DNA from: Actinomycetota bacterium
GTDB taxonomy: Bacteria > Actinomycetota > Thermoleophilia > RBG-16-64-13
Length of the DNA: 64,000 nt
Direction of reading: 5' to 3'
Assembly (NCBI GenBank): GCA_012514635.1
Contig: JAAYZX010000072.1
Span: 4,095-68,094 of the forward strand
The notes beneath the pieces are model-generated. The model was not told the origin of the DNA. It searched no databases and saw nothing but the letters and a program-made list of their open reading frames with translations. This document shows positions 18,438-53,780 of this stretch, in pieces. Numbering within the stretch: position 1 is the stretch's first letter; every line of letters begins with the position of its first letter. A program made the translations under genes and the position numbers.

Positions 18438-19415
18438 GTGACGCTGGACGAAGTCATCGCCGAACTACGCGAACGCGCCGATAGAAAAGTCATAGCCGGG
18501 ATGTATCGTGTAGGTATCAATCCTCGGGGGACGCTGGGGATCCAGATCCCGGAACTGCAGAAACTGGCGCGCCGTATCGGGACCGATCACGCGCTTGCCT
18601 TGGACCTATGGGCAACCGGGGTACATGAGGCGCGCATACTCGCTGCTATGGTGGATGATCCGGCCCAAGCCACTGAGGAGCAGATGGATCACTGGGCGCA
18701 GGGATTTGACTCCTGGGATGTCTGCGACCAGGTTTGCAAGTATTTGTTCGGTCGATCATCCTTTGCCTACACCAAAGCAAAAGAATGGGCGGGACATGGC
18801 GGCCAGTTCGTCAAACGGGCGTCTTTTGTGCTCATTGCCGATCTCGCTGTAAACGACAAGAAAGCCTCCGACGAGCCCTTCCTAGAGTTCCTGAAGTTGG
18901 CGGAACGCGAAGCCGTTGACGAGCGCAACTATGTCAAGAAGTCCGTGAGCTGGGCGGTGCGGCAGATCGGTAAGCGCAACAATTCTCTGAACAAGGCGGC
19001 ATTAGCGCTCGCCAAGCGCATGAAGGCACAGGGACCGCCTCCGGCGCGCTGGATCGCTTCCGATGTGCTACGCGAACTCTCCAGTGCGGCCGTGCAGGAT
19101 CGGTTGAAAAGGGCGGGCAAAGCCGGTAGGACGGGAGGGCAGAGGAGGCCCAAGAAGAAGGTAGAGAGTGGCGGAAGCGATACGATTGCCGATACCGACG
19201 CGGCACTCGACGCCCGCGCCGAGTTGGAGGGTGGCGAAGCCGCCGGGGCGTCGGAGACGTCCGAACGGCCGCCGGCAACGCGCCGCCGCCGAGGGTCTCG
19301 CGGCGGGCGCAGCCGCAAGGTCGCAGACACCGAGTCCGCCGGTGCAGAACCCACAAGCGTTGATCCCGGCACCGAGTCCGCCGGTGCGGCATCGAATGAG
19401 GAACATACTCCGTGA
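18438..19415 (+). CDS. DNA alkylation repair (AlkD/AlkC-like HEAT-repeat) family protein with a ~110 aa charged low-complexity C-terminal tail
   Basis: N-terminal 210 aa resemble AlkD-family HEAT repeats (LDLWATGVHEARILAAMVDD...SWDVCDQVCKYLFG...KKSVSWAVRQIGKRN). The tail is RRPKKK...RRRRGSRGGRSRK. Stop TGA overlaps the GTG start of the next gene (GTGA). Confidence 0.7.
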   Translation: MTLDEVIAELRERADRKVIAGMYRVGINPRGTLGIQIPELQKLARRIGTDHALALDLWATGVHEARILAAMVDDPAQATEEQMDHWAQGFDSWDVCDQVCKYLFGRSSFAYTKAKEWAGHGGQFVKRASFVLIADLAVNDKKASDEPFLEFLKLAEREAVDERNYVKKSVSWAVRQIGKRNNSLNKAALALAKRMKAQGPPPARWIASDVLRELSSAAVQDRLKRAGKAGRTGGQRRPKKKVESGGSDTIADTDAALDARAELEGGEAAGASETSERPPATRRRRGSRGGRSRKVADTESAGAEPTSVDPGTESAGAASNEEHTP

Positions 19416-40000: not shown

Positions 40001-40283
40001 CACCGGTGATAGTGCCGGCAGGTACGGCTGCCAACAAACCGGTGAGCATGTCGAAAGCCGCTTGAGCCGGACTACCCTTTATGCGGCGATACCGGGTGAC
40101 CAGTAACGGGGGTGAGTCTGGAGCGGGAAGGACTCCATTGGCCGTAGATAGATCTAGAAACAAGCTCTGGTCTGAGCCGTTATGCTCCTGAGCCAGGGCT
40201 TCTAGGAGTGCTGCCTCATCCTGACGACCGACCAACGCCATTTTGACGCTGATGCAGCCGATGTCGATCCCCAGAGTCGCCAT
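37032..40283 (-). CDS. Giant CoA-substrate-specific enzyme activase fusion: two BadF/BadG/BcrA/BcrD-type ATPase domains plus a DUF2229/HgdB-like domain
   Basis: N-terminus LGIDIGCISVKMALVG and a second copy YLGVDVGSVSTNLVVLD, both acetate/sugar-kinase-fold activase motifs. The C-terminal third matches DUF2229 (VGIPRSMYTYDRLPFWATFFKDLGF...). Confidence 0.85.
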   Translation of the reverse strand: MATLGIDIGCISVKMALVGRQDEAALLEALAQEHNGSDQSLFLDLSTANGVLPAPDSPPLLVTRYRRIKGSPAQAAFDMLTGLLAAVPAGTITGVRMTGTGSRILAERLNVTFENEFKAIARAVAALHPEVRYVFEMGGETSKYIELDTSDEAGHAGVADYQTNGDCAAGTGSFMDQQANRLLYDIEDVGDIVLSAGKAATVAGRCSVFAKSDMIHAQQKGYQPPEVLKGLCDAVVRNFRGAIARSKKIDGTVAFIGGVAANEGAREAMRAAFELDEEQMIVPAYYAWMGAIGAAMLETDEAVAPHSGSADQAPNHAPAALNLEFLRDLRISGFPTSPALSMERVILLRDVVRPYTWPHDNSDASAPNAGPAASQSQPADVIDAYLGVDVGSVSTNLVVLDNQGHLIKEIYTNTDGRPVEVVNRGLKEIWEEMGPRLNIRGVGTTGSGRELIGELIGADTITDEITAHKTGSTFIGDTLLNGRRPDTIFEIGGQDSKFISLEDGIVVDFAMNQACAAGTGSFLEEQAEKMGINIIGEFAELALSSSAPIRLGERCTVFMERDVNSYLQRGAEKRDLVAGLAYSIVHNYLNRLVAGRRVGDTIYFQGGTAYNDSVAAAFSEVLGKEIIVPPHNGVLGAVGMALLAREKMEITGESTRFRGWDLDQVEYTVKEFTCKGCTNECDIRQFTIGGEKTYWGDKCSDRYRKRAKVEKKPVIPDLLALRARLLFTYVSTDDSIDISGPVRSDAGVGRDTVGIPRSMYTYDRLPFWATFFKDLGFNILVSGETDRRIKEAGIESAVAEPCFPIRATHGHVAWLLDQGVDYVFLPNMLNEETDTPEVESHACAWGQTLPYVVMAAPTFEPYAHRFLYPTVHFRRGPEYVRRTLVDYFKPLGLRRREVERAVDHAYAAQAEFRAALSQAGADALARLQEHNELGIVLIGRPYNLYDPGLNMDIPAKLRKLYGANVIPLEFLPLWTEETRDITPNMFWNYGRKILQAARVAGRHPNLHLIYINNFKCGPDSYIKQFMRKAARDPFLVLQFDEHSNDAGAMTRVEAYLDSKGFLRWWTREGATQPQPVTVEGSVR

Positions 40284-40405: not shown

Positions 40406-42484
40406 TTACCACGTTGGTCTGGGTGGCGGGTCGTCTCCCACGGGGAGATAGTGGACTCGGTTCCTACCCTCCTTCTTTGCCCGGTAGAGCGCGGTGTCGG
40501 CGGTGCGGACCAGAGAGTACGGAGAAACGTCAGAGGTGGGTTGGGCCGTAGCTACTCCAATACTTACCGTCAGGTAGGGGGCGATCGATGATTGAGAATG
40601 ATCGATGCCCAGGGAGGCGATGTCGCCGCGGAGGTGTTCGGCTACCTCGATTGCCCCATCCGCGGTAGTGTTGGGCAGTATGGTGACAAACTCCTCACCT
40701 CCGTAACGAGCCACTAAATCTGCGGGTCGGCGCATGGATCGAGCGAGCGCGGACGCGACATCGATGAGGCAGCGATCGCCTGCTACATGTCCGTAAGTAT
40801 CGTTGTAGGCTTTGAAGAAGTCGATGTCGACCATGAGCAAAGACAGTGGTCTGTCGTCGCGGATTGCCCGTGCCCACTCTCGCTCAAGGCGTTGGTCGAA
40901 ATGTCGTCTGTTGCTGATACCGGTGAGAACATCAAGCAAAGAAAGATCGCGGAGCTTCTTGTTGGCGATTCGCAGTTCGGACTGGAGTTGGACCAGCTCC
41001 TCTTCGCGTTGACGACGCTGTTCAATCTCTGCGCGGGTGCGTTTTTCGGCCAGCTTGCGATCTGAGATATCGATATAACTGTATAGTAAACAGAGACGCT
41101 CGCCTAACTGCAGTGGAACCACCGTCAGAAGAACCGGTATCACCGAACCGTCGGCGTGGTACGCGTGCCATTCATGGTTTCGGATTCCTGCATCTTCGTT
41201 GGGTGCCGTGTGTGTCTCATCGATATGCTTCAGTATGGAGCTTCGTGTGACTCCAACGGTCTCTTCATGGCCGCGACCCAAGATAGAAAGCCCCACAGGG
41301 TTCACGTCGATCACTCGGTCGGTTTCGGTGTCCGCGAGCAGGATACCCACTCCAATGGTCTCCAAGATACGCTGCAGCTGCTCTCGTTCTTTGTCTAAGC
41401 TTTCACGAGAATTGTCAAGGGCGCTGAGCATGTCATTGATTGCTTCAGCGAGACCTGGGAGTTCGCTTTCACGATCTTTGCCCTGAAGTCTAGATCCCGG
41501 TTTCGCATTTCGTCCCAGTTCCGCGATGTCGGACACCAGCCGATTCAAACGGGCGAACACCAACCACTCTGTCACAAAGAGTCCCATACCGCCAACGATT
41601 AGGCTGATGAAGAGAAGTGCGAAGAGGAAGAACGAGGTCGTTTTGGAGGCTACCCGCATGATCTCACGGGGCTGTTCGACTTTCACCACGCCCATTGGCG
41701 AACCTGAAACATCTTCCAGAAACACGTACGATGAGATGACTGTGGGACTTGAGATCTCGGTCCATACGTCTGTTTCGGGAGTCGGATTGATGGAAGCGGG
41801 CCGGTTGTGCGTTGGCTGGTTACCCCCGGTCGCCGGCTGGTCGTCGGTGGATAGGAGGGATACAGCGATCTTCATTCCGGCGGCACCCTGTATGCGTCTG
41901 GTGAAAGTGTCGTCGAGGTAGCGGCCCATAAGGAGTGTACCGTTGATGGGGCCGGTACCCTGTGTGCCACGGAGGGGGGCCGAAGCCACCAGTATCAGGG
42001 CCTGTGCGCTCTGGGCGAGGCCGCTGCTCACCGATGGCACCGTCTGTGAGGCGCCTAGATGGGCGGAAGCTAATAGGCCTGCAAGCACCTCCGAGGGGGC
42101 ATCTGAGCCGCGATGCGTTATCAGGTTCATGCTTCTGGCCAACAGTATATTGCCTGGAGAGTCTGTGATCACCAGCAGATGGAGGTGCAGGTTACGCATA
42201 GTGTAATCGATCATATCGATATCGAGGGGTGCGTTAGTCCGTCCCGAAGCGAACGCGTACAGCTCATCCGACGCTGCGGAGTTGGCTGCATCTGCGGCTA
42301 GGGCATTGACATCTGTGCTGATGGCGCACTTAACACGCTGCACGTTCTCCTGGGCGTCCTTGCGTTCCAGTTCTAAGAACTGCGAGCGCAACATGGACTC
42401 CGATATCGTGTACAAGGCTCCGGCTAATACCAGCAGGGTCAAACTAAGAATGATAATGGTTTTGGCGCGAAGCGATAGGTGCAC
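40406..42484 (-). CDS. Membrane-anchored diguanylate cyclase: periplasmic sensor domain, HAMP, PAS, GGDEF
   Basis: GGDEF active site RYGGEEF with the upstream I-site-like RRPAD. Two TM segments bracket a ~250 aa periplasmic domain. PAS-like ILETIGVGILLADTE. Confidence 0.85.
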   Translation of the reverse strand: MHLSLRAKTIIILSLTLLVLAGALYTISESMLRSQFLELERKDAQENVQRVKCAISTDVNALAADAANSAASDELYAFASGRTNAPLDIDMIDYTMRNLHLHLLVITDSPGNILLARSMNLITHRGSDAPSEVLAGLLASAHLGASQTVPSVSSGLAQSAQALILVASAPLRGTQGTGPINGTLLMGRYLDDTFTRRIQGAAGMKIAVSLLSTDDQPATGGNQPTHNRPASINPTPETDVWTEISSPTVISSYVFLEDVSGSPMGVVKVEQPREIMRVASKTTSFFLFALLFISLIVGGMGLFVTEWLVFARLNRLVSDIAELGRNAKPGSRLQGKDRESELPGLAEAINDMLSALDNSRESLDKEREQLQRILETIGVGILLADTETDRVIDVNPVGLSILGRGHEETVGVTRSSILKHIDETHTAPNEDAGIRNHEWHAYHADGSVIPVLLTVVPLQLGERLCLLYSYIDISDRKLAEKRTRAEIEQRRQREEELVQLQSELRIANKKLRDLSLLDVLTGISNRRHFDQRLEREWARAIRDDRPLSLLMVDIDFFKAYNDTYGHVAGDRCLIDVASALARSMRRPADLVARYGGEEFVTILPNTTADGAIEVAEHLRGDIASLGIDHSQSSIAPYLTVSIGVATAQPTSDVSPYSLVRTADTALYRAKKEGRNRVHYLPVGDDPPPRPTW

Positions 42485-42705: not shown

Positions 42706-43305
42706 CTACTTGTTCATGGGCCCCAAGGGGAGAACAACGCGGCCGTAGACCTCGTTCCAGATCTGGGCGACGGCGGCGTAGACGGCCGAAAGACCGCACA
42801 CAATGCCCTCCCACCCAGCTATCTTCCCCACTATTTCGTTTCCGGTCCAATCGCGGATGGCTAGCAGGACAAAAAGCACGGTCAAGGTGAGAAACACCGT
42901 CTGCAGTGCCCGGTTCAACTTGAGTGTGCCGATAAACATGCAGAAAGTGAAGAATCCCCAGGCAAGAAAATACCAGGCCATGGCGTTATCCGATGCACCT
43001 TCCCACCAACCCCACTTGTTGAAAAGGAGTAGGCCTACCAAGGTGAGCCAGAACAGGCCATACGACGTGAAGGCTGTGGTTCCAAAAGTGTTGTTCTTTT
43101 TCCACTCCATGACACCGGCGATAATCTGGGCCAAGCCCCCGTAGAAGATGCCCATGGCCAGAATCATGGTGCCGAGCTCGTAGATGCCGGCATTGTGGAT
43201 GTTCAAGAGGACCGTGGTCATGCCAAATCCCAGCAGTCCCAACGGCGCCGGATTAGCCGTAGTGTCCTTGGTGATGACGATTGATTCCCCCGCTTGCGCC
43301 GCCAA
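42706..43305 (-). CDS. satP: GPR1/FUN34/YaaH (SatP/AceTr) acetate/succinate channel
   Basis: Family signature [14 protein letters not shown] near the N-terminus. Six TM helices. Confidence 0.85.
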
Positions 43306-43462
43306 CTGCAGTACCTCCTCCTTGTGTTACCCACACTTCCCTGTGAGCCGGCAGTATCCCCGAGACAAGAATAAGGGCGCATGATGGACGATGCCGCCTG
43401 CTCTGAGCCGAAGCCGAACTCAGTTTAGGCAATACAGACGCTATGCGCAATAGCGCGACGCC

Positions 43463-43885
43463 GTGTGGGTGATGTATTTCTTCGGAGCCGGAGCCGGTCT
43501 CATGATCATCGGTCAAGCGGTACCTATTGGGGAGGAGGTCGCTGGGATCGATACGGCCGTGGTCGCCAGCGGACTTGGGGTCATAGCCCTCTTGAACGGC
43601 TTGGGCCGTCTGGCTTGGGGCTCGATCAGTGACAAGATCGGCCGCATGCGCACAGTGATGCTCATGTTCGTAGTAATGATCATTGCCTTCGTAGCTGTGC
43701 TGCCCTACGCCTCCAACTTTGCAGTGTGGCTCATAGGTATGTGTTTGGTAGGTTTCAGCTTCGGAGGCTTCCTGGCCGTGATGCCCAGCATCACCGCCGA
43801 CTTCTACGCCTTCACAGTCAGAGCGCCGCGGGTGACTCTGGGTACCGACCAGGCGGCGACTGCCGTCGCAGGTAGCGAATCCTGA
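43463..43885 (+). pseudogene. Truncated MFS transporter remnant (OFA/oxalate-formate-antiporter-like C-terminal half); no N-terminal half upstream
   Basis: GLGRLAWGSISDKIGR is the characteristic OFA-family loop motif that begins the second six-helix bundle. Only ~4 TM helices are present and the ORF ends in non-family sequence. Confidence 0.5.
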
Positions 43886-43897
43886 GTTACAAAACTA

Positions 43898-44317
43898 CTA
43901 CGGGTGCGTAGTCTGCACCTCGCCGTCGTCCCGGGCCCCGTTCCCTACCGGCACGTAGACCGTGCTGCCGTCGTCCAGTCGATAGAATTGCCCTATCAGC
44001 TCACCTACACCCGACGTTTCCTCACCGGGCTGGAGTTGCAGGCGCTGAAGCGTGTCGCCTTCACGGATGATGAGCTCCATGTCGTGCCGTCCCGGGTTTT
44101 TGACCACGGTCATATCCTCACCCGCCAGCAGATCGGATAGGCCGATTCCGCTCAAGGCGGCCAATAGGAATGCCACGGCCAGCACGATGGCTACGTCGAA
44201 CAGGTTGACAACCCCATCCAGTGGATCGCCGTTGCGGTCCGTGCGATCCAGCCGTCTTCGTCCCATGAAGCGACCGTTGGTGCGGAGGGTGCGTCGTGTG
44301 CGCTTGATGTCGCTCAT
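43898..44317 (-). CDS. ExbD/TolR-like single-TM protein (DUF2149-like); start overlaps the ExbB-like gene stop (ATGA)
   Basis: Basic N-terminus, then VNLFDVAIVLAVAFLLAAL (compare ExbD INLTPLIDVVFVLLIFF), then a ~80 aa extracytoplasmic domain. Confidence 0.55.
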   Translation of the reverse strand: MSDIKRTRRTLRTNGRFMGRRRLDRTDRNGDPLDGVVNLFDVAIVLAVAFLLAALSGIGLSDLLAGEDMTVVKNPGRHDMELIIREGDTLQRLQLQPGEETSGVGELIGQFYRLDDGSTVYVPVGNGARDDGEVQTTHP

Positions 44318-45057
44318 AACGTGTCCTCGTTGGAGGCGGGGGGAAGATCGCCTCCTTCAGAAGTGCCGGTTTTATGCACTTGGTCGAGGGTTCGCATGGG
44401 GACGTGCGGAACAGGGGCAACACTGCCCTCCAGCAGTTCCAGCATGTACTCCAGATCAGATATGTCTTGCGAATACATGCGCTCTCGCAGGGCGCTGATC
44501 AGGTATGCCAGTCCACCGATGAGCAGCCCAAGGACCGTCACCGAAAACGCCACTCGCAGATTGCTGGCTAGAAGCTGAGTGTTGCCTTCCGCGAGTGCCG
44601 TCAGAGCCGGCGAAAGAGGGATCAAGGTACCCATGAGACCGAGCATGGGACCCACCCGCACTAGGATGCGGGTCTTTTCGAGACGCTGTTGGGTACGAAA
44701 CTCGTATTCCTCCAATAGCTTAAGCGGTTTTTCTGGGATCTGTGCCGTCTGGTAGTTGTGTATCAACTCGAAGAGGAAGTTGATCACCACGAGCGAGTAG
44801 CGGTTCTGGGCCAAGTATGAGTAGGCTTCGTTGGGTCGGTTGTTGGCAAAGGCTCTTTTGGCCCACAGGGCACGGGACTCGAGTCGTTCCAAATTGCGAT
44901 AGCGTTTGCGCAGATACATTTCATACGCCAGCCTGCCCAGCTCTACCAGGACCCACACCAAACAGGCCAGCGCTCCGATGAGGACCGGGTACAGCAACAC
45001 CCGCGCGATCTCATAGATAATCTGCTCAAGTCCCTGTGCGAAACTAACGGCGATCAT
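44314..45057 (-). CDS. MotA/TolQ/ExbB-family proton-channel protein
   Basis: Three-TM topology and family core RVGPMLGLMGTLIPLSPAL...LASNLRVAFSVTVLGLLIGGLAY. Confidence 0.8.
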   Translation of the reverse strand: MIAVSFAQGLEQIIYEIARVLLYPVLIGALACLVWVLVELGRLAYEMYLRKRYRNLERLESRALWAKRAFANNRPNEAYSYLAQNRYSLVVINFLFELIHNYQTAQIPEKPLKLLEEYEFRTQQRLEKTRILVRVGPMLGLMGTLIPLSPALTALAEGNTQLLASNLRVAFSVTVLGLLIGGLAYLISALRERMYSQDISDLEYMLELLEGSVAPVPHVPMRTLDQVHKTGTSEGGDLPPASNEDTL

Positions 45058-45063
45058 GCCGAA

Positions 45064-47070
45064 TCAGTCCTTCAGGTCGTCCGGTAATGGTAGGTGTGTC
45101 AGGTGATGGCGGACCCTACACTGTAGTTGCAGCCAGGCCGTGCGAGGACCGTCTCCAGGGGGCAGGTGCTTTCCGGAGGCGTCTTCAACAGCGAGGGCGG
45201 CGGGGAACATGTCGGCCAGCAGCGAGCTTCGCCGCCGGTGAAGCACGAGAGAGAGTCCGGCTCCCAACGGCGAGAGAGCGGCGATGCCTCCAGCGAGTAG
45301 TCCCGTTTGCCAACCATCGTCTGTCGGGAGTGGTGCGGTAGGTATCTCCTCACCGGTTACGAGGGTATTGGGCTCTGGGTTCTCAGTGGGAAAATCGGCG
45401 TCTGAAGCGGGTCCCATGCGGACACCGGCCACTACGCCGTCGAATCCGGCGACGTCGTGTGATGAAGATGAGTCGCCGGGTGTAGCCGTGCCGCCCATTG
45501 TGGAGTGCGCTCGGCTTGTCTGTGCGTTCGGGGTGTAGGCCGAGTGCGTCTCGGAGGCCTTCTGGCTACCGGATTGTCCGCCTGTGAGTACGCGCGTTGC
45601 GCCCCCCGCCGCACGGGTGGTCTCGGTGGTTCGGGACACGGTGGTTGGGCCGTTAGCGCTGCCGTTACCGGCTGCATGGGTTGTGGTAGTGGTCGGCGCC
45701 GTGGCGGTAATGGGAAGCTCGGAGGTCGCGACATGGCCTGCATAGTCGGCGATGATGATGCCTACCTTGTGCGCTCCCGGCGAAAGTGTGCCTATGGACA
45801 GCTCAAGCGAACCCTCCGTCACCGTAGCTGTATCGAGGGTGAGCGCTGTGCCGTCCAGATACACTTGTATCTGTGCGGGGTTGATGCCGGTCTGGCCCAC
45901 TCCATCGGTGAACTCGGCGCTGATATGAAAACCGTTGGTGGGCACGTCGGCGTCCGGCATCGGCGTCAGTGAGGAAAAAGAAGGACGATAGTCGGGGGCT
46001 TGGTTATGCTCCAACAGAGAAAAAGGAACACTGTGACCGGCAAGCGCTATAACGGCCTGCGTGGTGGTCATGAGGGGTGTGGCCACCTGTCCTGTCCGGT
46101 GTGCGAAGCAACCGCTGGGCTGCTGGAGGGAAAGCAGATATCCGGCGGGGTCGTTCTGTCTGGTCCAGTTGGATAGATCCTCGCCCAAGGCATTGAGGGC
46201 TTGAAGTGCCCAGGCGGTAGATTCGGCCGTGCTCCTGGTGTTCGTTATCCACGACGCAAAGCCGCCGTCCTCGTTCTGGTATCGGCGCAGGAATTCCACC
46301 GCCGCCTGCACGGCTGAGTCGTCTCGGGAAGCGCCGGAGGCCACTAATGCTTGGATGGCTGCTCCGGTGTCATCCACATCTTCTACGGCGCCGCTTTGGA
46401 ACGAAAAGCCCCCGTCGGCCGCCTGAGCCGTCCGCAGCCAGGCGGCGGCCTGCTCCACGATCTCCTGGTGCGATCCCAGGGCGGATAGTGCAAGAATGGC
46501 CCAGATGGTGGTGTTGATATCCGCCATGCGGGAGTTGGCGGTGGACATGGAGAAGTGGCCGGTGTCGGTATGGCGGAAGGCCAGCAGCTCATCTGTCAGG
46601 GATACGGTGGGCCGTCCTGCCTGCATGGCAAGGTCTGGTCGTCCTGCAGCGTTGAAGGCCAGGATCAGCTTGGCATAGAAAGCGGGTGTGTTGTTGCTGC
46701 CTGCTCCGGAGACGGCCTCGGAGGCGATGTCCATGTCGCGCATTACCGTCACCAGGTTTCGAGAGTCGAGGGACCATGAGGCGGGATTGTATCCGGCGGC
46801 AGAGACGGCCATGACGGCCCAGGGGAGGATGCTGAGGTCGCCGGTGGGGGAATTGGTAGCGAAGCCACCGTTCTCTTTCCACTGGGCGTGGAGGTAGTCG
46901 AGGGCTCGGGGGGCGGCATCTTGGGGTGTGAGGGCCAAGGCCGGACTGCTCAACGTGAGCACAAGTATGAGGAAAGATATTGTGGCCGGCGCAGCGGCCG
47001 TCATGGTGCGATTGGCCACAATACGCGCGCGTCCCCTGACTGCAGGAGGGGATGGGGTTGAGATCGTCAT
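45064..47070 (-). CDS. Cell-surface prenyltransferase/squalene-hopene-cyclase-repeat (alpha/alpha toroid) protein: signal peptide, Ig-like domain, Thr/Ser-rich stalk, C-terminal TM anchor and ~55 aa cytoplasmic tail
   Basis: Repeated QW/GGF-type motifs (KENGGFATN, ADGGFSFQSG, NEDGGFASWI, QQPSGCFAH). Stalk TATAPTTTTTHAAGNG...TSRAHSTMGGTATPGDSSSS. TM anchor GLLAGGIAALSPLGAGLSLVLHRRR. ATG at 47070 overlaps the S-component stop (ATGA) and has GGAGG 8 nt upstream. The track start at 47280 is an artefact. Confidence 0.75.
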   Translation of the reverse strand: MTISTPSPPAVRGRARIVANRTMTAAAPATISFLILVLTLSSPALALTPQDAAPRALDYLHAQWKENGGFATNSPTGDLSILPWAVMAVSAAGYNPASWSLDSRNLVTVMRDMDIASEAVSGAGSNNTPAFYAKLILAFNAAGRPDLAMQAGRPTVSLTDELLAFRHTDTGHFSMSTANSRMADINTTIWAILALSALGSHQEIVEQAAAWLRTAQAADGGFSFQSGAVEDVDDTGAAIQALVASGASRDDSAVQAAVEFLRRYQNEDGGFASWITNTRSTAESTAWALQALNALGEDLSNWTRQNDPAGYLLSLQQPSGCFAHRTGQVATPLMTTTQAVIALAGHSVPFSLLEHNQAPDYRPSFSSLTPMPDADVPTNGFHISAEFTDGVGQTGINPAQIQVYLDGTALTLDTATVTEGSLELSIGTLSPGAHKVGIIIADYAGHVATSELPITATAPTTTTTHAAGNGSANGPTTVSRTTETTRAAGGATRVLTGGQSGSQKASETHSAYTPNAQTSRAHSTMGGTATPGDSSSSHDVAGFDGVVAGVRMGPASDADFPTENPEPNTLVTGEEIPTAPLPTDDGWQTGLLAGGIAALSPLGAGLSLVLHRRRSSLLADMFPAALAVEDASGKHLPPGDGPRTAWLQLQCRVRHHLTHLPLPDDLKD

Positions 47071-47813
47071 GTGGTGTCCTCCAGAGGAAGCAGGCGGGGT
47101 GAGGTACGGGCTCTGAAACGTGCCAAAATACGGATGGCCTGAGGCCCGAATGCCAGCGCTCCTAAAACGGTGGCGGCAACGTGAGCGACGTCGAAGGGAG
47201 CGCCCTGTAGGTAGAGCGCAAATAACGCGCCCAGCGAGTGGTTTGTGAAGGCCAGGAACATCCACAAAGAAACGAACCAATCAAACGCGAGGGCTAGGGC
47301 GCCTCCCACCAGCGCCAGTGTCCAACGGGATGGGACGCGGCCATGGCGACCGAGGGCACCGCCGGCAAGTCCCACCAGTCCCCATGCCAGCATTTGCCAA
47401 GGCGTCCAGGGGCCTTGTCCGAAGAAGAGGTTGGAGACCAGGCCGGTAGTGGCCCCCGCCATGAATCCTGCGCGGGGACCGAGAGCCGCCCCCGAGACCA
47501 GAATGATGATGGTGACGGGTTTGAAGTTGGGCAGTGAGGCAAACAGCACGCGGCCCGCGGTGGCCAATGCTGCCATGGCGGCCACCAGCGCGAGTTCATG
47601 GGCGGCGGCCAGCCGGCGACCCAGCGTCCAGGTGAGAGTGGCCCCGGCCAGCAAGACGATCAGGAGGGCGAACGTCCCCCAGGGGAGTGCGCCGGGGCGC
47701 AGGATGGTCAAGATGGCGAGGGTGGCGGCGCCGGTGGCCAGAGTCACCGGCGCCGCCACCCTCGCCATCCATCTGGGGTTGCGCACACGGATGTCCGTCG
47801 TTTCAGGCTGCAC
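47067..47813 (-). CDS. Putative ECF-transporter substrate-specific (S) component (possibly CbrT-like); hydrophobic 6-TM protein
   Basis: Small multi-TM protein sitting between the ECF A-A' and surface-protein genes in the same operon. Assignment is by context and hydropathy, not by motif. Confidence 0.5.
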   Translation of the reverse strand: MQPETTDIRVRNPRWMARVAAPVTLATGAATLAILTILRPGALPWGTFALLIVLLAGATLTWTLGRRLAAAHELALVAAMAALATAGRVLFASLPNFKPVTIIILVSGAALGPRAGFMAGATTGLVSNLFFGQGPWTPWQMLAWGLVGLAGGALGRHGRVPSRWTLALVGGALALAFDWFVSLWMFLAFTNHSLGALFALYLQGAPFDVAHVAATVLGALAFGPQAIRILARFRARTSPRLLPLEDTT

Positions 47814-49527
47814 TCTCAGTCTCGCGATCTCTTATGATCACCTGTTCAGCACGCAACACACCCGGCAGGGCATGGCGTAGCAGGCGGTTGATCTGGGTGG
47901 AAAAGAACAGGGAGCCGTCGAGCACCTGCTCCACGGGTCCGTCGGCCAAAATGCCGCCGTCTCCCAGAAGAATCACCCTGTGGGCACAGCGGGCGGCAAA
48001 CTCTATGTCGTGGGTTACGACCAAGATGCCCATGCCCGTCTCCGCCCAGCGGGCCAGCAGGTCTGCCAGGGCCGATTTGGCGGTAGGGTCGAGGCCGCGC
48101 GTAGGTTCATCTAGGACCAGGAACGGCGGATGCGCACAGGCCAGAAGTGCCAAGGCCGCTCTTGTACGTTCCCCCCCGGAGAGATCGCGAGGGTTGCGGT
48201 CCAGTAGTTCGCTCAGCTCCAAGTCGTGGATGATAGCCTCTCGTAGGTACTGGCGGGCGGGCCCCGGTTGGGTGTGCATCTCCAACGAGTAGTCGAGTTC
48301 CCGAGAGAGGGTCTCGTGCACGAAGTAGTCGGTAGGATTTTGCCCCAATATCGCGCAAGAGCGGGCTGCTTCTGCCACCGACATGGTCGAAACCAGGCGG
48401 CCGTTGATGGCTACGCTCCCGGCCATGGGTTGACGCAGGCCGTTGAAATGGCAGATGAGTGTCGATTTGCCGCAGCCATTTTCCCCAAGGAGGGCCACTA
48501 TCCGGCCGGTGTGCAGCTCGAGGTCGATGTCGTCCAGAAGAGGCGGATCTGGAGGGTAGCCAACAGACAGGCGTCTGACGCTAAGCGTACCCCGGTCGGC
48601 AGAACTATCGTTGGCGCGATGAGATGCATAGTGGGTGCTAGAGGCAGGATTCGAATCTGAGACCGGGTCCGGATTTCGCCATTGAGGTTCAGCAAATCTC
48701 TCTGTACCGTCGTTCATGGCCAGGCGGGCATCGCGAACGGTGAGTGGTAGCCTGTGGCCGGGGGCAAACAATCGTGTCACGGGAGGTAGAAATTCAGGAT
48801 GCATCGTAGATGCCCACGATGCGAATGCTGAAGGGGTGGTGTCTAGGACTAGATCGCCCGAGTCCATGAACAGTACACGGCCGGCCATGTGTAGGCAGCG
48901 ATCGACCCGATGTTCTGCTAGGACAATGGTGGTGCCCGTATCCTCGCTCAGCCGGCGGAGCGCCGACAGCAACTCCTCAGCGCCGACCGGGTCCAGTTGT
49001 GATGTAGGCTCGTCCAACAATAGCAGCTGCGGCTGCGTGGCCAGCACGGCGGCAAGCGCTACCTTCTGTAGCTCGCCGCCGGAGAGCGTGGAGAGCGTGG
49101 CACGTCTGAGGTGAGATAGTCCCAGAGCCACCAGAGACTCCTCCACCAGCCTTCCTATGGATGCTACGGGTGTGCCGGCGTTCTCCAGCCCAAAAGCGAT
49201 CTCTCTCTCCACCGTAGTCATGACGGACTGACTCTCCGGATCCTGGAACACCAGACCCACTACCCGTGCCAGATCGCGAGGTCGAGATGAACGGGTGTCC
49301 ATCTCAGCGACGCGCACCCGGCCGGCGAATGTTCCCCCGTAGAAGTGCGGCACCAGCCCATTGAGGGCACGCAGCACCGTGGATTTGCCGCAGCCCGATT
49401 CGCCTAAGAGCAGCACTACCTCCCCGGCGTCCAGCTGAAAGGACACGTTGCGGACGGTAGGGGATGAGTCCTCGCGGCCTTCCGGATAGCTGTATGTGAG
49501 CTTCTCTACCGAGACTAGCGGCGCCAC
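47803..49527 (-). CDS. ecfAA: Fused tandem ECF-transporter ATPase (EcfA-EcfA', two ABC nucleotide-binding domains)
   Basis: Two full NBDs: GESGCGKST...LSGGELQKVALAAVL...LLLDEPTSQLD and GENGCGKSTL...LSGGERTRAALALLL...LVLDEPTRGLD. Likely GTG start at 49527 overlapping the EcfT stop. The first ~110 aa of track ORF 47803..49863 are an artefact. Confidence 0.85.
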   Translation of the reverse strand: MAPLVSVEKLTYSYPEGREDSSPTVRNVSFQLDAGEVVLLLGESGCGKSTVLRALNGLVPHFYGGTFAGRVRVAEMDTRSSRPRDLARVVGLVFQDPESQSVMTTVEREIAFGLENAGTPVASIGRLVEESLVALGLSHLRRATLSTLSGGELQKVALAAVLATQPQLLLLDEPTSQLDPVGAEELLSALRRLSEDTGTTIVLAEHRVDRCLHMAGRVLFMDSGDLVLDTTPSAFASWASTMHPEFLPPVTRLFAPGHRLPLTVRDARLAMNDGTERFAEPQWRNPDPVSDSNPASSTHYASHRANDSSADRGTLSVRRLSVGYPPDPPLLDDIDLELHTGRIVALLGENGCGKSTLICHFNGLRQPMAGSVAINGRLVSTMSVAEAARSCAILGQNPTDYFVHETLSRELDYSLEMHTQPGPARQYLREAIIHDLELSELLDRNPRDLSGGERTRAALALLACAHPPFLVLDEPTRGLDPTAKSALADLLARWAETGMGILVVTHDIEFAARCAHRVILLGDGGILADGPVEQVLDGSLFFSTQINRLLRHALPGVLRAEQVIIRDRETESAA

Positions 49528-50426
49528 GTCAGACTCCAGACGGCCGGTACAAAAACAAATGCGAGCAACGCGATGCTCGAGGGGGTTGTGAACGTCTCCA
49601 TAGGGTTGGCGATCACGGGGAAATACGCGAAACCCAGGTTGCGACTGACACCTCCCACAATCAAGCAGATGAAGCCTCCTCCTGCGAGAGCCGCTACTGC
49701 TATGTCGGTGGTCTTCCAGCGCAGGCGGCGTCTCCATGTGGTGCGCCCCGGTAGGCCGTAGCCGCGTGATTCCATGGAGGCGGCTACGTCGGTGCCGCGC
49801 TCCAGGCTTTGAGTGAGAAGTCCTGCTAGAAGGGGACCGCGGGCGATGGCTCGGTCTCGCCATCGCCCGCGGTCCAGTTCCGCTCCCCGCGAGCGTTGCG
49901 CATCGCTGATGCGGGCTGCGTCTCGGGAGAGCACGGGGAGCAGTCGTGTGGCCAGCGACACCACTAATGCCGACCTGGCCGATAGTCGACTCAGCATGGC
50001 CAGTTGGTAGTCCTGGTCTAGGATCAATGTCAATGTGGCGAATGCCAGGATCAATGTGATGAGGTGAAGTGCCTGCCCAGCTCCGAAGGCAATGCCCTCC
50101 CAGGTAATCCGTAGATGGAAGGGACCCAGTTGGGCGGCCAGCAAGGGGTGAATTCCCCCTGACGAAAACAGTGGGTTAATGATGAGCACCGTGATGCCTG
50201 CATAGATTGCTACACGTACGTATGCGGCAGCGGCACGCAGGCGGCCGTCGCTCGCCAGAGTCAGCAGGCAGGCACACAATATGCATACGAGGAACAACGG
50301 ATTCGTTATTACCAGCGCCGCTGTCACCAGGAACATCGTGTAAGCGGTTACCACTGCAGGGCGACGCGCAGCCATCCCCGCACGGAATGAGAGGCGGTGG
50401 CTTTGGATATGTCGTTGTCCGCGCAT
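49515..50426 (-). CDS. ecfT: ECF-transporter transmembrane (T) component, EcfT/CbiQ family
   Basis: CbiQ-family coupling-helix motifs (SRDAARISDAQRSRGAE ... AASMESRGYG). ATG overlaps the upstream stop (TGATG). Confidence 0.8.
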   Translation of the reverse strand: MRGQRHIQSHRLSFRAGMAARRPAVVTAYTMFLVTAALVITNPLFLVCILCACLLTLASDGRLRAAAAYVRVAIYAGITVLIINPLFSSGGIHPLLAAQLGPFHLRITWEGIAFGAGQALHLITLILAFATLTLILDQDYQLAMLSRLSARSALVVSLATRLLPVLSRDAARISDAQRSRGAELDRGRWRDRAIARGPLLAGLLTQSLERGTDVAASMESRGYGLPGRTTWRRRLRWKTTDIAVAALAGGGFICLIVGGVSRNLGFAYFPVIANPMETFTTPSSIALLAFVFVPAVWSLTWRR

Positions 50427-51433
50427 CAGTTGTTGCCTTCGGTTGGGGAGGCAGTCGACTTGTCGGGGAGGGGGACGAGTTTGTCTTCTGAGATCCCCAC
50501 GGCTACGCGACCGCGCGTAGATAAGGCGTGCAGTTCGGCCAGCAATGATTCTAGGGCTTCTATATCGGCCCCGAGCAGCACGAGTAGTAGGGCGTCGGGG
50601 TTATCAGGATGCGCCAGGCATAGGGCGGCTGCAGCGAGTAGACGTCCGGCTTCGCCCTCTTCGGTCAAAGCGTTCAGTGTGCCGTCCGGGTTTCTTTGCA
50701 CAAAAACTCCCATTCTATAGCCCCGCTCCAGGATGGCATTCAGCCACTGCGGTATCTCTGTCGAGGACAGGTCTATGGCCACCACAGCCTGACCTTGGGG
50801 CAGTTCTTCCACGAGAATCTCAGAGCCCAGGTTGATACCGGTAGCTGAGGCCCAAGAAGTAAGCTGCGAGGCCACATAGGGAGCCGCCCAGGATAGTAGC
50901 TCGTTGTTGAACGGGCGGGGGAAAGCGGACAGCGTGGCCGGGATCATGGTTGTACCCGACCATGCGTGGTAGTCCCACCAAACGGTCTCATTGCTGCTCA
51001 AAGTGTAATAATCTGCGCCTATATCGGCCAGACGCCCATCTACCCAGTAGAACCAGTCTGCGGCTTGGCCGGGGACGGCGGACCCAAAGGTGGATTGAAG
51101 TCCATCTATGGCGCCTACGAAACCGCCGCCGTAGCCCGTCTCAACTTTGGAGTGCTCTACCAGTAGAGCCATGACACTGGTTTCGGCCTGCAACTCCGAG
51201 GTGACGTCCAGGAGGACTTGGTCGCCGAAGTCGCGGGTGACGAGCAGCCGTGGCCCGGGAGCGTCTCCCGGGCCACGGCTGGACTCGGTGGTGGCGGCGG
51301 GCTGCGAAGTCCCGCAGCCCGCCGCCACCACCAACAGCACGACGCACATCAACAATATGCGCGCCACCAACACGCGGCGAGTCGGCGCCAACGGGCGGGG
51401 TACCCTCCGGGATGTGTCGTCGTGTGTGTGCAC
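50426..51433 (-). CDS. DUF4430 (transcobalamin-like B12-binding fold) lipoprotein
   Basis: Lipobox LLVVAAGCGTS. DUF4430 core ADWFYWVDGRLADIGADYYTLSSNETVWWDY (W-x-Y-x-V-[DN]-G ... Y-x-L ... V-W-W-x-Y). Confidence 0.65.
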   Translation of the reverse strand: MHTHDDTSRRVPRPLAPTRRVLVARILLMCVVLLVVAAGCGTSQPAATTESSRGPGDAPGPRLLVTRDFGDQVLLDVTSELQAETSVMALLVEHSKVETGYGGGFVGAIDGLQSTFGSAVPGQAADWFYWVDGRLADIGADYYTLSSNETVWWDYHAWSGTTMIPATLSAFPRPFNNELLSWAAPYVASQLTSWASATGINLGSEILVEELPQGQAVVAIDLSSTEIPQWLNAILERGYRMGVFVQRNPDGTLNALTEEGEAGRLLAAAALCLAHPDNPDALLLVLLGADIEALESLLAELHALSTRGRVAVGISEDKLVPLPDKSTASPTEGNN

Positions 51434-51440
51434 TTTCCCT

Positions 51441-52802
51441 CTACTTCAGCAGCTCAAGCAGGTTGGCGATGACCTGGGCGGTCTCCGCCCGCGTCATGGG
51501 CTCCCACGGATCGGCCGCCGTGCCTTGGAGATCGAGACCGGTGAGCAGGCCGTTGTATTCCGCGATGCGGGCGTTGTCCTGGTGATCTGTCGAGAAGGTT
51601 CCCCAAGTTGCCGAGAAGGTTTCGGGTGCCTCGCTGAGCGCCGCCGGCGTGATCATCTGTGCCGCTCTGACCACCATGGTCACCACCTGCGCGCGGGTCA
51701 CTTTGTCATAGGTGCCGAAAGTATTGGTCGTGAGGCCTTTGACGATCCCACGCGAGAAGGCCGCCGCCACAAAATCGTGAGGATAGGGGTTTCCGGTCTC
51801 GCGTTCGCCCAGATCGGTGAAGGGCGTGTCGGCCCCAGCTACGATCTCCAGCGAGAGCGCCAAAGAGATCATCTTGGCGAACTGGGCGCGGAAGAGGTTA
51901 TCGGCGGGCCCGAAACTCGGAGTGACGTCTCCCGCATCGGTCTTATAACCTTCCACGATGCCGGCACCGGCAATGGCGTGGATGGCGCCATAGTGGGGAT
52001 GATCCGCGCTCACGTCTGCGAACTCACCGATGAGGGTCAGGCCGCCTGGGCCCGAAATGTACTGCCAGTTCTCATCGTAGGCCTTCTCGGCCCACACGGC
52101 GTGGATGCCGACCGGGACTACAGCTATGGTCACCTGTCCCTGCGCGTCGGTTACATATGTAGCGCCGTTCACATGGACGGTTGCTCCCTCCACCGGCTCG
52201 AAGTCGGCCGGCAGTTCTACGTCCGTGGCTGGGTCGAGATCGAAACGCGGAGCGTCGGCAGCGGAGTTGGCTTTGCCGAGGTCGTCACCTACCACCGTCA
52301 ACGTGACCGGTCCACCGGCCGCGACCGCCTGCGGCCCCAGCACGATGAGTTCCTTGTCCACCCAAGGGGCCGTGGGATCCCCGCCGGCCTCGAAGAAGAG
52401 GATGCGGTCACCGTCCTGCAGCTCCCAGTCGAGCAGGCCCACCATGGGGATGCATCCGTTGACGGAGTACAGCCACCAGCTGGTCCAGTCCGGAGGGCCA
52501 CCTATTCCGGCGATGGAATCGAGGAAGGCTCCACCTGCAGTAGTGACGAAGGCAAAGTCCTCGGCTTGGGCCGCCAGATATAGTGCGCCTAGGGCATTGG
52601 CCGGACCGCAGGTGATGACGTTGCCCTCGCTATCGGTGATGGTCAGATCGTCAGGGACGTCTACCTGTACCGGCGCGCAGACCTCGCCGCTCAAGCTCTG
52701 CGCCCGCACCGTTACGGTTGCCGCCCACGCGGGCGCCGCCACCAGCAGTACGAGGGCGGTTGCCAGCACCGTGACCATGGTGAGGAGTGTTCTTTTCCTC
52801 AT
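51441..52802 (-). CDS. SLH-anchored surface protein with N-terminal DUF4430 (transcobalamin-like) domain and three C-terminal S-layer-homology repeats
   Basis: Signal peptide MRKRTLLTMVTVLATALVLLVAAPAWA. DUF4430 core TSWWLYSVNGCIPMVGLLDWELQDGDRILFFEA. SLH repeats (FADVSADHPHYGAIHAIAG..., FTDLGE...HDFVAAAFSRGIVKG, ...TRAETAQVIANLL). Real ATG at 52802. The first 52 codons of track ORF 51441..52958 are actually the riboswitch. Confidence 0.75.
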   Translation of the reverse strand: MRKRTLLTMVTVLATALVLLVAAPAWAATVTVRAQSLSGEVCAPVQVDVPDDLTITDSEGNVITCGPANALGALYLAAQAEDFAFVTTAGGAFLDSIAGIGGPPDWTSWWLYSVNGCIPMVGLLDWELQDGDRILFFEAGGDPTAPWVDKELIVLGPQAVAAGGPVTLTVVGDDLGKANSAADAPRFDLDPATDVELPADFEPVEGATVHVNGATYVTDAQGQVTIAVVPVGIHAVWAEKAYDENWQYISGPGGLTLIGEFADVSADHPHYGAIHAIAGAGIVEGYKTDAGDVTPSFGPADNLFRAQFAKMISLALSLEIVAGADTPFTDLGERETGNPYPHDFVAAAFSRGIVKGLTTNTFGTYDKVTRAQVVTMVVRAAQMITPAALSEAPETFSATWGTFSTDHQDNARIAEYNGLLTGLDLQGTAADPWEPMTRAETAQVIANLLELLK

Positions 52803-52861
52803 CGTCGACCTACCTTTCTCGGTCTCTCCGGCGCGAGCGCTATGGTGCAAAGTGCTCCGAC

Positions 52862-52893
52862 AAATAAAAAACCCCGCTGCTGTGTCAGCGGGG
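52862..52893 (-). terminator. Riboswitch expression-platform terminator (attenuator) between the cobalamin aptamer and the first operon gene
   Basis: On the minus strand: ccccgctg-acacag-cagcgggg followed by TTTTTTATTT, ~60 nt upstream of the ATG at 52802. Confidence 0.6.
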
Positions 52894-52954
52894 TGCACTT
52901 CACCTGATCGGTTGCTGAGCACCCATCCGCGTGGGTTAAGCAGCTCTGCAAGCG

Positions 52955-53125
52955 GCAAGGCAGGTCTTCTGGCTTCCGGTCTCAGCTATGCCGCAGCGCT
53001 GCCTTCCCAGACCGTTTGGTCCAGTGGCCCCACACCTCCGCCCCCGGTACGGGTGACGGTGGATCGCGATACGGCGACCGGTTACAGCGACGGGATCGCG
53101 CCGGACTCTCACCGGCTTCCCTAGG
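52955..53125 (-). ncRNA. Cobalamin (AdoCbl) riboswitch
   Basis: Minus-strand sequence contains the conserved elements GGTGAGAGTCCGGCGC, CCGTCGCTGTAA, GGGGCCACTGG, GGGAAGGC and the B12 box GAAGCCAGAAGACCTGCC in canonical order. Located in the 5' leader of the DUF4430/ECF operon. Confidence 0.8.
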
Positions 53126-53264
53126 CACATAGCCGCGCGCCTCTATTGATACACACCTCCATGGTAGAGGGCGGTCGCGGACAATGCAAGCACTCAAAGG
53201 GGTGACGGTGTTAGACGAATCCGACGGTTGCAGAGACCGACACTCCGGAGTATGGTGCAATGGT

Positions 53265-53780
53265 ATGGAAGGATACGTACAGGTATATACGGGCGACGGT
53301 AAAGGCAAGACCACCGCCGCCCTGGGGCTGGCGCTTCGAGCGGCGGGTGCCGGGCTGCGTGTACTTTTTGCCCAGTTCGTGAAGGGTATGGAGTACAGCG
53401 AAATGAAGGCTCTGCAGCGCTTTGCCGATCTCATCACCGTTCGTCAATATGGCCGGGGGTGCTTCATCTACGGTGAGCCTGCGGCGGAGGACTGTGCCGT
53501 TGCCCGTTCCGGTCTGGATGATGTGCGTGCCGCTTTGGTCTCCGGCGATTTCGATTTGGTCATAATGGACGAGGGCAACATAGCCACCAGCGTCGGTCTA
53601 TTCAGCGTGCGTGAGCTCCTTGATGTGATGGCGGCCAGACCTGCGGACGTAGAGTTGGTCATCACAGGTCGGGATGCCGACCCTCGTGTAATTGCAGCAG
53701 CCGATCTGGTGACCGAGATGCGTGAGATCAAGCACTATTATCAACAGGGCGTCCAAGCGCGTATCGGAATTGAGAAATAG
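53265..53780 (+). CDS. cobA: Cob(I)yrinic acid a,c-diamide / cob(I)alamin adenosyltransferase (CobA/BtuR/CobO family)
   Basis: P-loop VYTGDGKGKTTAALGLALRAAGAG and family core LFAQFVKG...DLVIMDE. Divergent from the riboswitch-controlled operon. Confidence 0.8.
   Translation: MEGYVQVYTGDGKGKTTAALGLALRAAGAGLRVLFAQFVKGMEYSEMKALQRFADLITVRQYGRGCFIYGEPAAEDCAVARSGLDDVRAALVSGDFDLVIMDEGNIATSVGLFSVRELLDVMAARPADVELVITGRDADPRVIAAADLVTEMREIKHYYQQGVQARIGIEK

Follow-up and report, generated by a model that had tools for sequence, protein, structure and literature searches.

The window analyzed here, 64,000 nucleotides of contig JAAYZX010000072.1 from an Actinomycetota bacterium of the class Thermoleophilia (assembly GCA_012514635.1), contains an operon of eight minus-strand genes (g1–g8) headed by a cobalamin riboswitch. 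The genes encode two DUF4430 proteins (g1 and g2), an energy-coupling factor (ECF) importer (g3–g5), a stalked α/α-toroid surface protein (g6), and a MotA/ExbB-family protein paired with a DUF2149 protein (g7 and g8). The importer is of the corrinoid type, and the last three genes place a putative proton-driven motor next to the surface protein that it probably serves.

The riboswitch aptamer (RF00174) occupies positions 52942..53147 (−). Rfam cmscan matches 53147..52942 (−) to the full model (positions 1-189 of 189) with a score of 75.4 bits (gathering score 31.5; E 9.1e-17), and the B12 box GCCACTG is present. The aptamer is followed by an intrinsic terminator at 52861..52894 (−), which constitutes the expression platform. 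The terminator hairpin (52894-52871) has 9 bp, 7 of them GC, and precedes TTTTTATTT; the whole element reads ACCCCGCTG-ACACAG-CAGCGGGGT, then TTTTTATTTG. The hairpin and T-run stand about 60 nt ahead of the g1 start, and no other terminator-like site in the 10 kb examined (43400-53400) is as strong. The riboswitch is of the transcription-termination type and heads the eight-gene operon, which would switch off when corrinoid is plentiful, following the usual logic of this riboswitch class. Homologous riboswitches occupy the same position in the related loci L001, L006, and L007 and in 12 further ECF-linked loci.

With the starts of g1–g8 re-set using ribosome-binding sites and junctions, the genes are separated by at most 7 nt or overlap by 1-13 nt. 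The junctions from g1 to g8 are a 7-nt gap, a 1-nt overlap, a 13-nt overlap, an 11-nt overlap, ATGA, a 6-nt gap, and ATGA, the two ATGA junctions (g5/g6 and g7/g8) being 4-nt overlaps. No convincing internal terminator or promoter splits off g6–g8, although a consensus scan is of little value in this phylum. A weak terminator-like hairpin at the end of the operon (43897..43912, −; a 6-bp stem, then AGTTTTGTAA) overlaps the g8 stop and is assigned with low confidence. On the opposite strand, the divergent cobA/btuR gene for ATP:corrinoid adenosyltransferase lies at 53265..53780 (+) (Pfam CobA_CobO_BtuR PF02572, 204.7 bits, 1.6e-60), with 53265 as its probable start, and it keeps this divergent position in L001, L012, and L032. 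The same gene order and riboswitch recur in at least 12 other species-level genomes; therefore, the arrangement is not due to chance.

A preliminary description, made from the sequence of the window, had already reported a cobalamin riboswitch with its own terminator, eight tightly packed minus-strand genes, and a divergent cobA/btuR at 53265, all of which agree with the results above. Its family calls for g1–g8 all hold in Pfam and NCBIfam searches. Only the accession that it gave for DUF4430, PF15892, has to be corrected, to PF14478.

The corrinoid-type importer and its capture proteins

The first two genes encode extracytoplasmic proteins. The product of g1 (51441..52802, −; 453 residues) has a signal peptide (...APAWA/ATV), a DUF4430 domain at residues 77-136 (36.2 bits, 8.1e-9), and a C-terminal SLH cell-wall anchor in two stretches from residue 261 (48.5 bits, 8.6e-13); a ribosome-binding site precedes its start at 52802. 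The product of g2 (50426..51433, −; 335 residues) is a lipoprotein, with the lipobox VVAAGC in the translation and a DUF4430 domain at residues 86-156 (45.5 bits, 1.1e-11). Both DUF4430 matches are above the Pfam cut-off. The DUF4430/SLBB fold is that of the transcobalamin β domain.

The next three genes encode the importer. The T component, g3 (49515..50426, −; 303 residues), belongs to the CbiQ family (Pfam, 68.1 bits, 1.1e-18), and its NCBIfam match to TIGR02454 (59 bits) is under the cut-off of that model. The fused EcfA-EcfA' ATPase, g4 (47803..49527, −; 574 residues), has two ABC_tran stretches (Pfam, 2.7e-56) and reaches 330.7 bits against a cut-off of 315 for NCBIfam ECF_ATPase_1. The S component, g5 (47067..47813, −; 248 residues), matches the Pfam families ECF-ribofla_trS, DUF6580, and ECF_trnsprt; in a search of the PDB its sole match is 6fnp_A, the S component of ECF-CbrT (E 2.9e-10, residues 73-220), which makes it a CbrT homologue. 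The operon thus encodes a T component, two ABC ATPase domains, and an S component together, that is, a dedicated (group I) ECF transporter. Because of the riboswitch, the family calls, the CbrT-only PDB match of g5, and the divergent cobA, we read the importer as B12-type, in agreement with the riboswitch control of ECF genes proposed in the preliminary description. In the account given below, the part that concerns this importer is near certain.

Proteins of the g6 type are closely associated with such importers elsewhere. In many toroid homologues, the toroid and an ECF S component form a single polypeptide; fusions with SLH occur in several homologues and a fusion with DUF4430 in one. Four loci (L008, L091, L092, and L093) have the order DUF4430 x2 – CbiQ – AA' – S::toroid, with a cobalamin riboswitch detected in three of them (L008, L091, and L093). 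A locus from Clostridia (L010) encodes toroid-DUF4430-SLH, DUF4430, CbiQ, A-A', S, and toroid-SLH. On account of these fusions and shared operons across loci, the toroid and DUF4430 proteins can be regarded as regular accessories of the CbrT-type ECF importer.

This part of the operon has precedents. Burroughs et al. 2007 described bacterial transcobalamin-like SLBB proteins that are fused to α/α toroids or occur as paired paralogues with CbiO/CbiQ, and predicted B12 scavenging while leaving "B12 or its precursors" open (PMC1796856). Their operons resemble that of the window in having two secreted SLBB/DUF4430 paralogues, a toroid, and CbiQ/CbiO in one operon, with surface anchoring and predicted B12 capture. 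However, no MotA/ExbB/TolQ-type genes are mentioned in PMC1796856, and the toroid of the window differs in standing on a long stalk with its own C-terminal membrane anchor, followed by MotA–DUF2149. The lsa1836-1840 ECF-like system of Lactobacillus sakei, linked experimentally to heme by Verplaetse et al. (bioRxiv 10.1101/864751), likewise combines an ECF S component, a fused A-A', and a T component with separate secreted β-like (DUF4430-type) and α-like (toroid) proteins. It differs from the window in being heme-linked, in having no motor genes described, and in having no riboswitch reported by its authors. ECF-CbrT of Lactobacillus delbrueckii (PDB 6FNP; PMC5997447) shares with the window the energizing-module architecture and, through g5, the S component; unlike the window, it has a shared ECF module and neither extracellular accessory proteins nor a motor.

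Several observations concern corrinoid metabolism around these operons. PAP2 and PduO-type adenosyltransferase genes lie downstream of three of the S::toroid operons (L008:10601-11287, L091:10258-10860, and L092:10333-10878), and a nitroreductase-family gene takes their place in the fourth (L093:9990-10523). The adenosyltransferase of the window is instead CobA-type. No B12 biosynthesis genes are found among the flanking genes scanned in the window, which also encodes a radical SAM protein with a B12-binding domain (19412-21181, +), a likely consumer of the imported cofactor. In a close relative (L002, GCA_040769805.1, 2400-10000), the DUF4430 lipoprotein, S component, and MotA genes are broken into short open reading frames (ORFs), reflecting either assembly frameshifts or operon decay.

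The toroid protein and the MotA–DUF2149 pair

The product of g6 (45064..47070, −; 668 residues) is a stalked α/α-toroid surface protein. In its AlphaFold2 (AF2) model, a signal peptide is followed by a toroid (residues 27-343) and an Ig-like β domain (residues 364-457), both with a predicted local distance difference test (pLDDT) score above 90. The C-terminal part consists of a disordered T/S/G-rich stretch of about 105 residues (484-589), a transmembrane (TM) helix (588-621), and a cytoplasmic helix (641-659). The model confirms the architecture given in the preliminary description: toroid, Ig-like domain, Thr-rich stalk, C-terminal TM helix, and cytoplasmic tail. The TM helix carries the motif GGxLLAxLPxGAxxS...RR, which is present in 61 of the 77 toroid ORFs scored (the motor-adjacent ones and those of the three motor-less loci L008-L010), in ECF-linked and trio-only loci alike; by trio we mean the adjacent toroid, MotA, and DUF2149 genes.

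The toroid matches Prenyltrans (3.4e-14) and SQHop_cyclase_C (1.9e-10) in Pfam. The profile search finds 1gsz at 2.8e-38, identifying an α/α-toroid with QW-type repeats, and Foldseek places class II terpene cyclases (8paj, 8pak, and 2sqc) and prenyltransferase β subunits on top. Transcobalamin gives no profile match at E<1 and does not appear in the Foldseek top 50. Nor does g6 match Pfam Cobalamin_bind PF01122, for which the L001 orthologue scores 20.4 bits, under the cut-off of 25. A literal split transcobalamin is thus rejected, since both the profile search and Foldseek bring the toroid closer to class II terpene cyclases and prenyltransferases; "split transcobalamin" is an architectural analogy within one fold superfamily (general fold, toroid plus SLBB), not a statement of close kinship.

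Two sets of toroid residues are informative. Around residues 231-235, g6 carries DVDDTG, which resembles the DxDDTA motif of class II cyclases. At this position the orthologues from operons of the same type read SVDQT (L007), SIDST (L019), and GVDTT (L021), and the trio-only toroids vary freely, making a terpene-cyclase enzyme unlikely, as the DxDD motif is not kept. Residues D233, E283, S284, W287, and H324 are conserved in ECF-linked toroids and not in trio-only toroids. The difference suggests a changed ligand pocket, with these five as candidate pocket residues and H324 as a residue that could serve as a cobalt ligand.

The product of g7 (44314..45057, −; 247 residues) is a MotA/TolQ/ExbB-family proton-channel protein of the HmuU type (Pfam MotA_ExbB PF01618, 38.9 bits against a cut-off of 22.9). 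Its TM2 GPMLGLMGTLIPL and TM3 AFSVTVxGLLIGG are kept at 95% or more in 80 sequences, the segments GLMGT and SVT each containing a Thr. The product of g8 (43898..44317, −; 139 residues) is a DUF2149 protein of the HmuV type with a single N-terminal TM helix and a conserved Asp; DUF2149 (82.9 bits) is the sole Pfam family matched. RNGDPLDG is invariant in this family, and D41, within NLFDVAIVL, is kept in 24 of 27 sequences. D41 and the conserved Thr residues of g7 TM2 and TM3 are candidate proton-path residues. The family comprises 463 clusters at 50% identity among 1.84 billion representatives.

The preliminary description had called g8 "ExbD-like". A TM helix with a conserved Asp fits this name; further resemblance to ExbD is weak. 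Searching the PDB with a DUF2149 profile gives no match at E<=10. Hhalign assigns a probability of 28% to the alignment with E. coli ExbD and of 9% to that with E. coli TolR, the aligned part being mostly the TM helix. In the former, weak match, which spans the TM helix only, DUF2149 D41 is paired with ExbD D25. In the AF2 model of g8, a TM helix (residues 32-57) precedes an all-β remainder at pLDDT 52-68, with a low-confidence overall pLDDT of 59. Given the empty PDB profile search, the weak hhalign match, and the poor model, g8 is not taken as a true ExbD; "ExbD-like" would denote a functional resemblance, with family membership only weakly indicated.

Other known motors fit less well. PADLOC finds no match for g6, g7, or g8, and an anti-phage motor such as Zorya ZorAB is rejected on this ground. 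A flagellar stator is also rejected: its support is marginal, consisting of a sub-threshold NCBIfam MotA score of 15.6 bits and a PDB sequence match of g7 to MotA (6ykm) at E 0.29, and no flagellar genes are seen in the scanned parts of the window. TonB and TonB-dependent outer-membrane receptor families are absent among the eight operon proteins and the flanking genes scanned.

The g7–g8 pair corresponds to HmuU/HmuV, which are encoded in the heme operon hmuYRSTUV of Bacteroidota and annotated as MotA/TolQ/ExbB plus DUF2149 (PMC11681262, PMC12583661). The two families are adjacent, in the same order, and inside a tetrapyrrole-acquisition operon in both cases. The hmu operon has in addition a TonB-dependent receptor, the CobN-like dechelatase HmuS, and HmuT, and belongs to a two-membrane cell. 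In contrast, the operon of the window lacks CobN, HmuT (DUF2162-type), and an outer-membrane receptor, has a toroid binder and an ECF importer, and belongs to an actinobacterium. HmuT/U/V are hypothesized to act in inner-membrane heme/iron transport, in a role described as unclear or assumed (PMC12094164).

The preliminary description knew of no functional description of the system. The motor coupling is indeed undescribed in the literature searched: we found no prior description of an ExbB-type motor with ECF and cobalamin in Gram-positives, or of a squalene-oxidase repeat (SCO2321) with cobalamin. However, the DUF4430/toroid/ECF combination appears in PMC1796856 and in L. sakei, and the motor pair in hmu. 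The ECF, DUF4430, and toroid part has therefore been described already, and what appears to be new is its coupling to a motor in a probably single-membrane bacterium.

Distribution of toroid–motor loci

Scanning one genome per species with a DUF2149 alignment yields 80 loci, nearly all from metagenome-assembled genomes (MAGs) of Thermoleophilia or other Actinomycetota; the loci were annotated using the proteins of the window. The closest is from a Thermoleophilia MAG of an anaerobic membrane bioreactor. Among the 75 loci with at least 3.3 kb upstream, MotA is present in 75 and a toroid lies directly upstream of MotA–DUF2149 in 67, with one more missed by the filter. Conversely, the motor is absent in all five loci whose toroid is S-fused or SLH-anchored (L008, L010, L091, L092, and L093). 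From the upstream toroids, the conserved C-terminal TM motif, and the lack of a motor in the S-fused and SLH-anchored loci, the specific partner of the motor is, at the level of gene neighborhoods, the C-terminally anchored toroid.

The link to the importer is looser. Upstream sequence of at least 8.5 kb is available for 63 loci; the toroid is found in 55 of them and the full DUF4430 – CbiQ – A-A' – S block in 12, so that roughly one species in five has the ECF link. A riboswitch heads the operon in all 12 full ECF-linked loci and is found in none of the trio-only loci (nhmmer on all, Rfam on eight). The other 43 of the 55 toroid–motor trios have no adjacent ECF/DUF4430 genes or detected riboswitch; therefore, the trio can persist without this ECF. 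These data refine the preliminary description in two ways. Its proposed tie between the ExbBD-like pair and the toroid protein is borne out by the 67 loci and the conserved TM motif, but, contrary to its suggestion, the motor is not hard-wired to the ECF importer. The gene-neighborhood survey that it had proposed does find MotA–DUF2149 together with ECF and a riboswitch, in 12 of 63 loci, while most trios are found without ECF.

In a neighbor-joining tree of MotA plus DUF2149, the ECF-linked loci are spread over several clades, between which trio-only clades are placed. Most loci, whether ECF-linked or trio-only, adjoin parB; in the clade of the window, the eight genes lie together away from parB. 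L005 and L006 have both flanks in common and differ in the ECF block. Because these flanks match, the ECF block is best seen as an insertion or deletion at a fixed locus. The trio stands alone beside parB-parA-gidB in most Thermoleophilia species (L005, L017, L018, L022-L027, and about 35 further loci; e.g., L005:7084-10570).

A few pairs have other upstream neighbors. In L003:3237-10483 and L071, MotA–DUF2149 follows a large secreted NHL β-propeller protein whose C-terminal end consists of a TM helix and basic residues; a weak match to ABC_cobalt, which is ECF-S-like, lies nearby. In Conexibacter (L087:3771-10303), the pair follows a 433-residue secreted protein with a C-terminal end of the same kind. 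ABC-importer-like genes lie upstream there, namely an ABC ATPase and an ORF that we interpret as a FecCD-type permease.

Outside Actinomycetota, Desulfonema magnum CP061800.1 (Desulfobacterota; L094:8152-15188) has a 112-bit cobalamin riboswitch followed by DUF2162 – MotA_ExbB – DUF2149 – SdpI – CobN, so that CobN and DUF2162 adjoin the MotA–DUF2149 pair as in the Hmu-type module. Joined with hmu and the window, this locus extends the motor type to tetrapyrrole operons of three phyla, two of them behind a cobalamin riboswitch. It supports the link between B12 and the motor independently, from an unrelated phylum.

The genes that flank the operon in the window add the following. A 140-residue remnant of a major facilitator superfamily (MFS) transporter (43463-43885, +) matches only the C-terminal part of the profile; at the same place, the related genome L001 has a 419-residue MFS gene and a carbonic anhydrase gene. 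Sequence between g8 and a Gpr1/YaaH gene (42706-43305) seems to have been deleted in the window. Further downstream of the operon, and syntenic with L001, are genes for a 1083-residue BcrAD/BadFG + DUF2229 CoA-enzyme activase-like protein (37032-40283, −) and an MMPL transporter (33022-35562, −). A CHASE4-PAS-GGDEF protein (40406-42484) is encoded between these two genes and the operon in the window only, not in L001.

Proposed coupling and alternative explanations

In the preliminary hypothesis, DUF4430 proteins capture corrinoids at the S-layer, the toroid relays them, possibly in contact with the ExbBD-like pair, and ECF imports them. The hypothesis is reasonable, gains comparative support, and is now partly supported. 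We propose the following sequence. The SLH-anchored DUF4430 protein (g1) would capture corrinoid in the wall. By analogy with the α and β domains of transcobalamin, and judging from the families and prior work, toroid and DUF4430 would sandwich the corrinoid, and the stalked toroid together with the lipoprotein g2 would bring it to the CbrT-type S component. The MotA–DUF2149 pair would act as a proton-driven motor with the toroid as its client, engaged through the conserved C-terminal TM helix, as comparative genomics suggests. The proton-motive force would let the motor pull on the stalked binder or reset it, and corrinoid held tightly there would pass to the S component. ATP hydrolysis by the ECF module would then import the corrinoid, and CobA would adenosylate it.

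The three ways in which toroids are attached (fusion to the S component, SLH anchor, or TM anchor plus motor) are consistent with a motor that overcomes a difficulty of delivery created by a free-standing stalked binder. The action of the motor on the toroid would be analogous to that of ExbBD on TonB. TonB–ExbB–ExbD and TolA–TolQ–TolR likewise combine a MotA/ExbB-family channel and a small single-TM protein having a membrane Asp with a third protein, whose one TM helix and long extended linker reach outward to a ligand-handling site. Unlike them, the window has no TonB/TolA homologue or TonB-dependent receptor, its third protein is anchored C-terminally rather than N-terminally, and homology of DUF2149 to ExbD cannot be demonstrated outside the TM helix.

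Taken as a whole, the account that we favor by a narrow measure is a corrinoid importer of the CbrT type in which a proton-driven motor actuates the binder, the stalked toroid; the motor step by itself seems evenly balanced. Several results weigh against it. Most toroid–motor trios (43 of 55) have neither adjacent ECF/DUF4430 genes nor a detected riboswitch, and the trio-only toroids differ at D233, E283, S284, W287, and H324. Both in sequence and in fold, the closest matches of the toroid are class II terpene cyclases and not transcobalamin, and g6 escapes the Cobalamin_bind profile. The kinship of DUF2149 to ExbD comes down to a single TM helix; the PDB profile search is empty, and the DUF2149 model is of low confidence. 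Finally, the L. sakei homologue is linked to heme, not to B12.

The first two of these results are also the starting point of the chief alternative, in which the toroid–MotA–DUF2149 trio is an independent Thermoleophilia housekeeping module with a non-B12 role (e.g., another envelope or tetrapyrrole ligand), uncoupled from the upstream ECF-CbrT operon. The fixed position of most trios beside parB and the behavior of the ECF block as an insertion or deletion, as seen from the common flanks of L005 and L006, are in line with such a module, as are the differing pocket-candidate residues. The same residues, however, form a conserved set of their own in the ECF-linked toroids, and ECF/DUF4430 operons of different phyla include a toroid as an integral part, in some cases even fused to the S component. 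In addition, g5 and g6 overlap by ATGA with no convincing internal terminator, the eight genes stay together away from parB in the clade of the window, and a B12 riboswitch also precedes MotA–DUF2149 in Desulfonema. We therefore consider an uncoupled module unlikely, though it is the strongest competitor.

A motor that drives a membrane step directly, moving corrinoid or metal across the membrane or re-setting the S component instead of acting on the toroid, is distinctly less probable. It would follow the proposal of inner-membrane transport for HmuT/U/V (PMC12094164), and the pairs of Desulfonema and Bacteroidota do accompany DUF2162/HmuT and CobN with no toroid. But the S::toroid fusion operons do without a motor, and the motor accompanies the C-terminally anchored toroid even with no adjacent ECF. 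Moreover, ECF transporters run on ATP and function with no partner of this kind, as is reportedly the case for ECF-CbrT.

The substrate might also be heme, another metallotetrapyrrole, or a corrinoid precursor instead of cobalamin. Heme uptake was affected by the homologous operon of L. sakei (bioRxiv 10.1101/864751), HmuUV belong to a heme system, and Burroughs et al. left B12 precursors open (PMC1796856). The cobalamin riboswitch, found at 12 of 12 complete ECF-linked loci, the CbrT homology of g5, and the adjacent cobA all point to cobalamin and make this alternative improbable. A precursor such as cobinamide is compatible with riboswitch, CbrT homology, and cobA; a non-corrinoid substrate is unlikely. 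Least probable of all is that g6 is an extracytoplasmic class II terpene-cyclase-like enzyme and not a binder: squalene-hopene and monodomain class II cyclases are what it matches best in sequence and fold, and its DVDDTG motif recalls such enzymes, but the motif is lost in L007, L019, and L021, g6 is secreted and stalked with relatives fused to S components or DUF4430, and the eight genes of the operon include no isoprenoid genes.

Two questions become testable here. ECF transporters are considered to function without an external binding protein, and the grip of transcobalamin-type binders on B12 is so tight that animals resort to proteolysis to free it. Coupling of the binder to a proton-driven motor would provide a concrete mechanism for the hand-over of corrinoid from a tight binder to the S component, and the question of how a tight binder releases its corrinoid could be addressed experimentally. 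The same applies to the role of MotA/ExbB plus DUF2149, the HmuU/HmuV heme operon being reported as ubiquitous in human gut metagenomes. The Thermoleophilia trio and the riboswitch-controlled pair of Desulfonema point to a general role of this pair in tetrapyrrole handling.

A broader and rather doubtful reading is that Thermoleophilia, and perhaps other bacteria with a presumed single membrane, have a TonB-analogous system, in which MotA/ExbB–DUF2149 grips the C-terminal helix of a stalked binder and, driven by the proton-motive force, unloads or reels its cargo across the thick wall to an ATP-driven ECF. The binder would be the corrinoid-binding toroid here and an NHL propeller or another C-terminally anchored protein elsewhere, and HmuU/HmuV would be explained as well. 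If the coupling proposed for the window is confirmed, TonB-like energy transduction would extend to an Actinomycetota lineage presumed to have no outer membrane.

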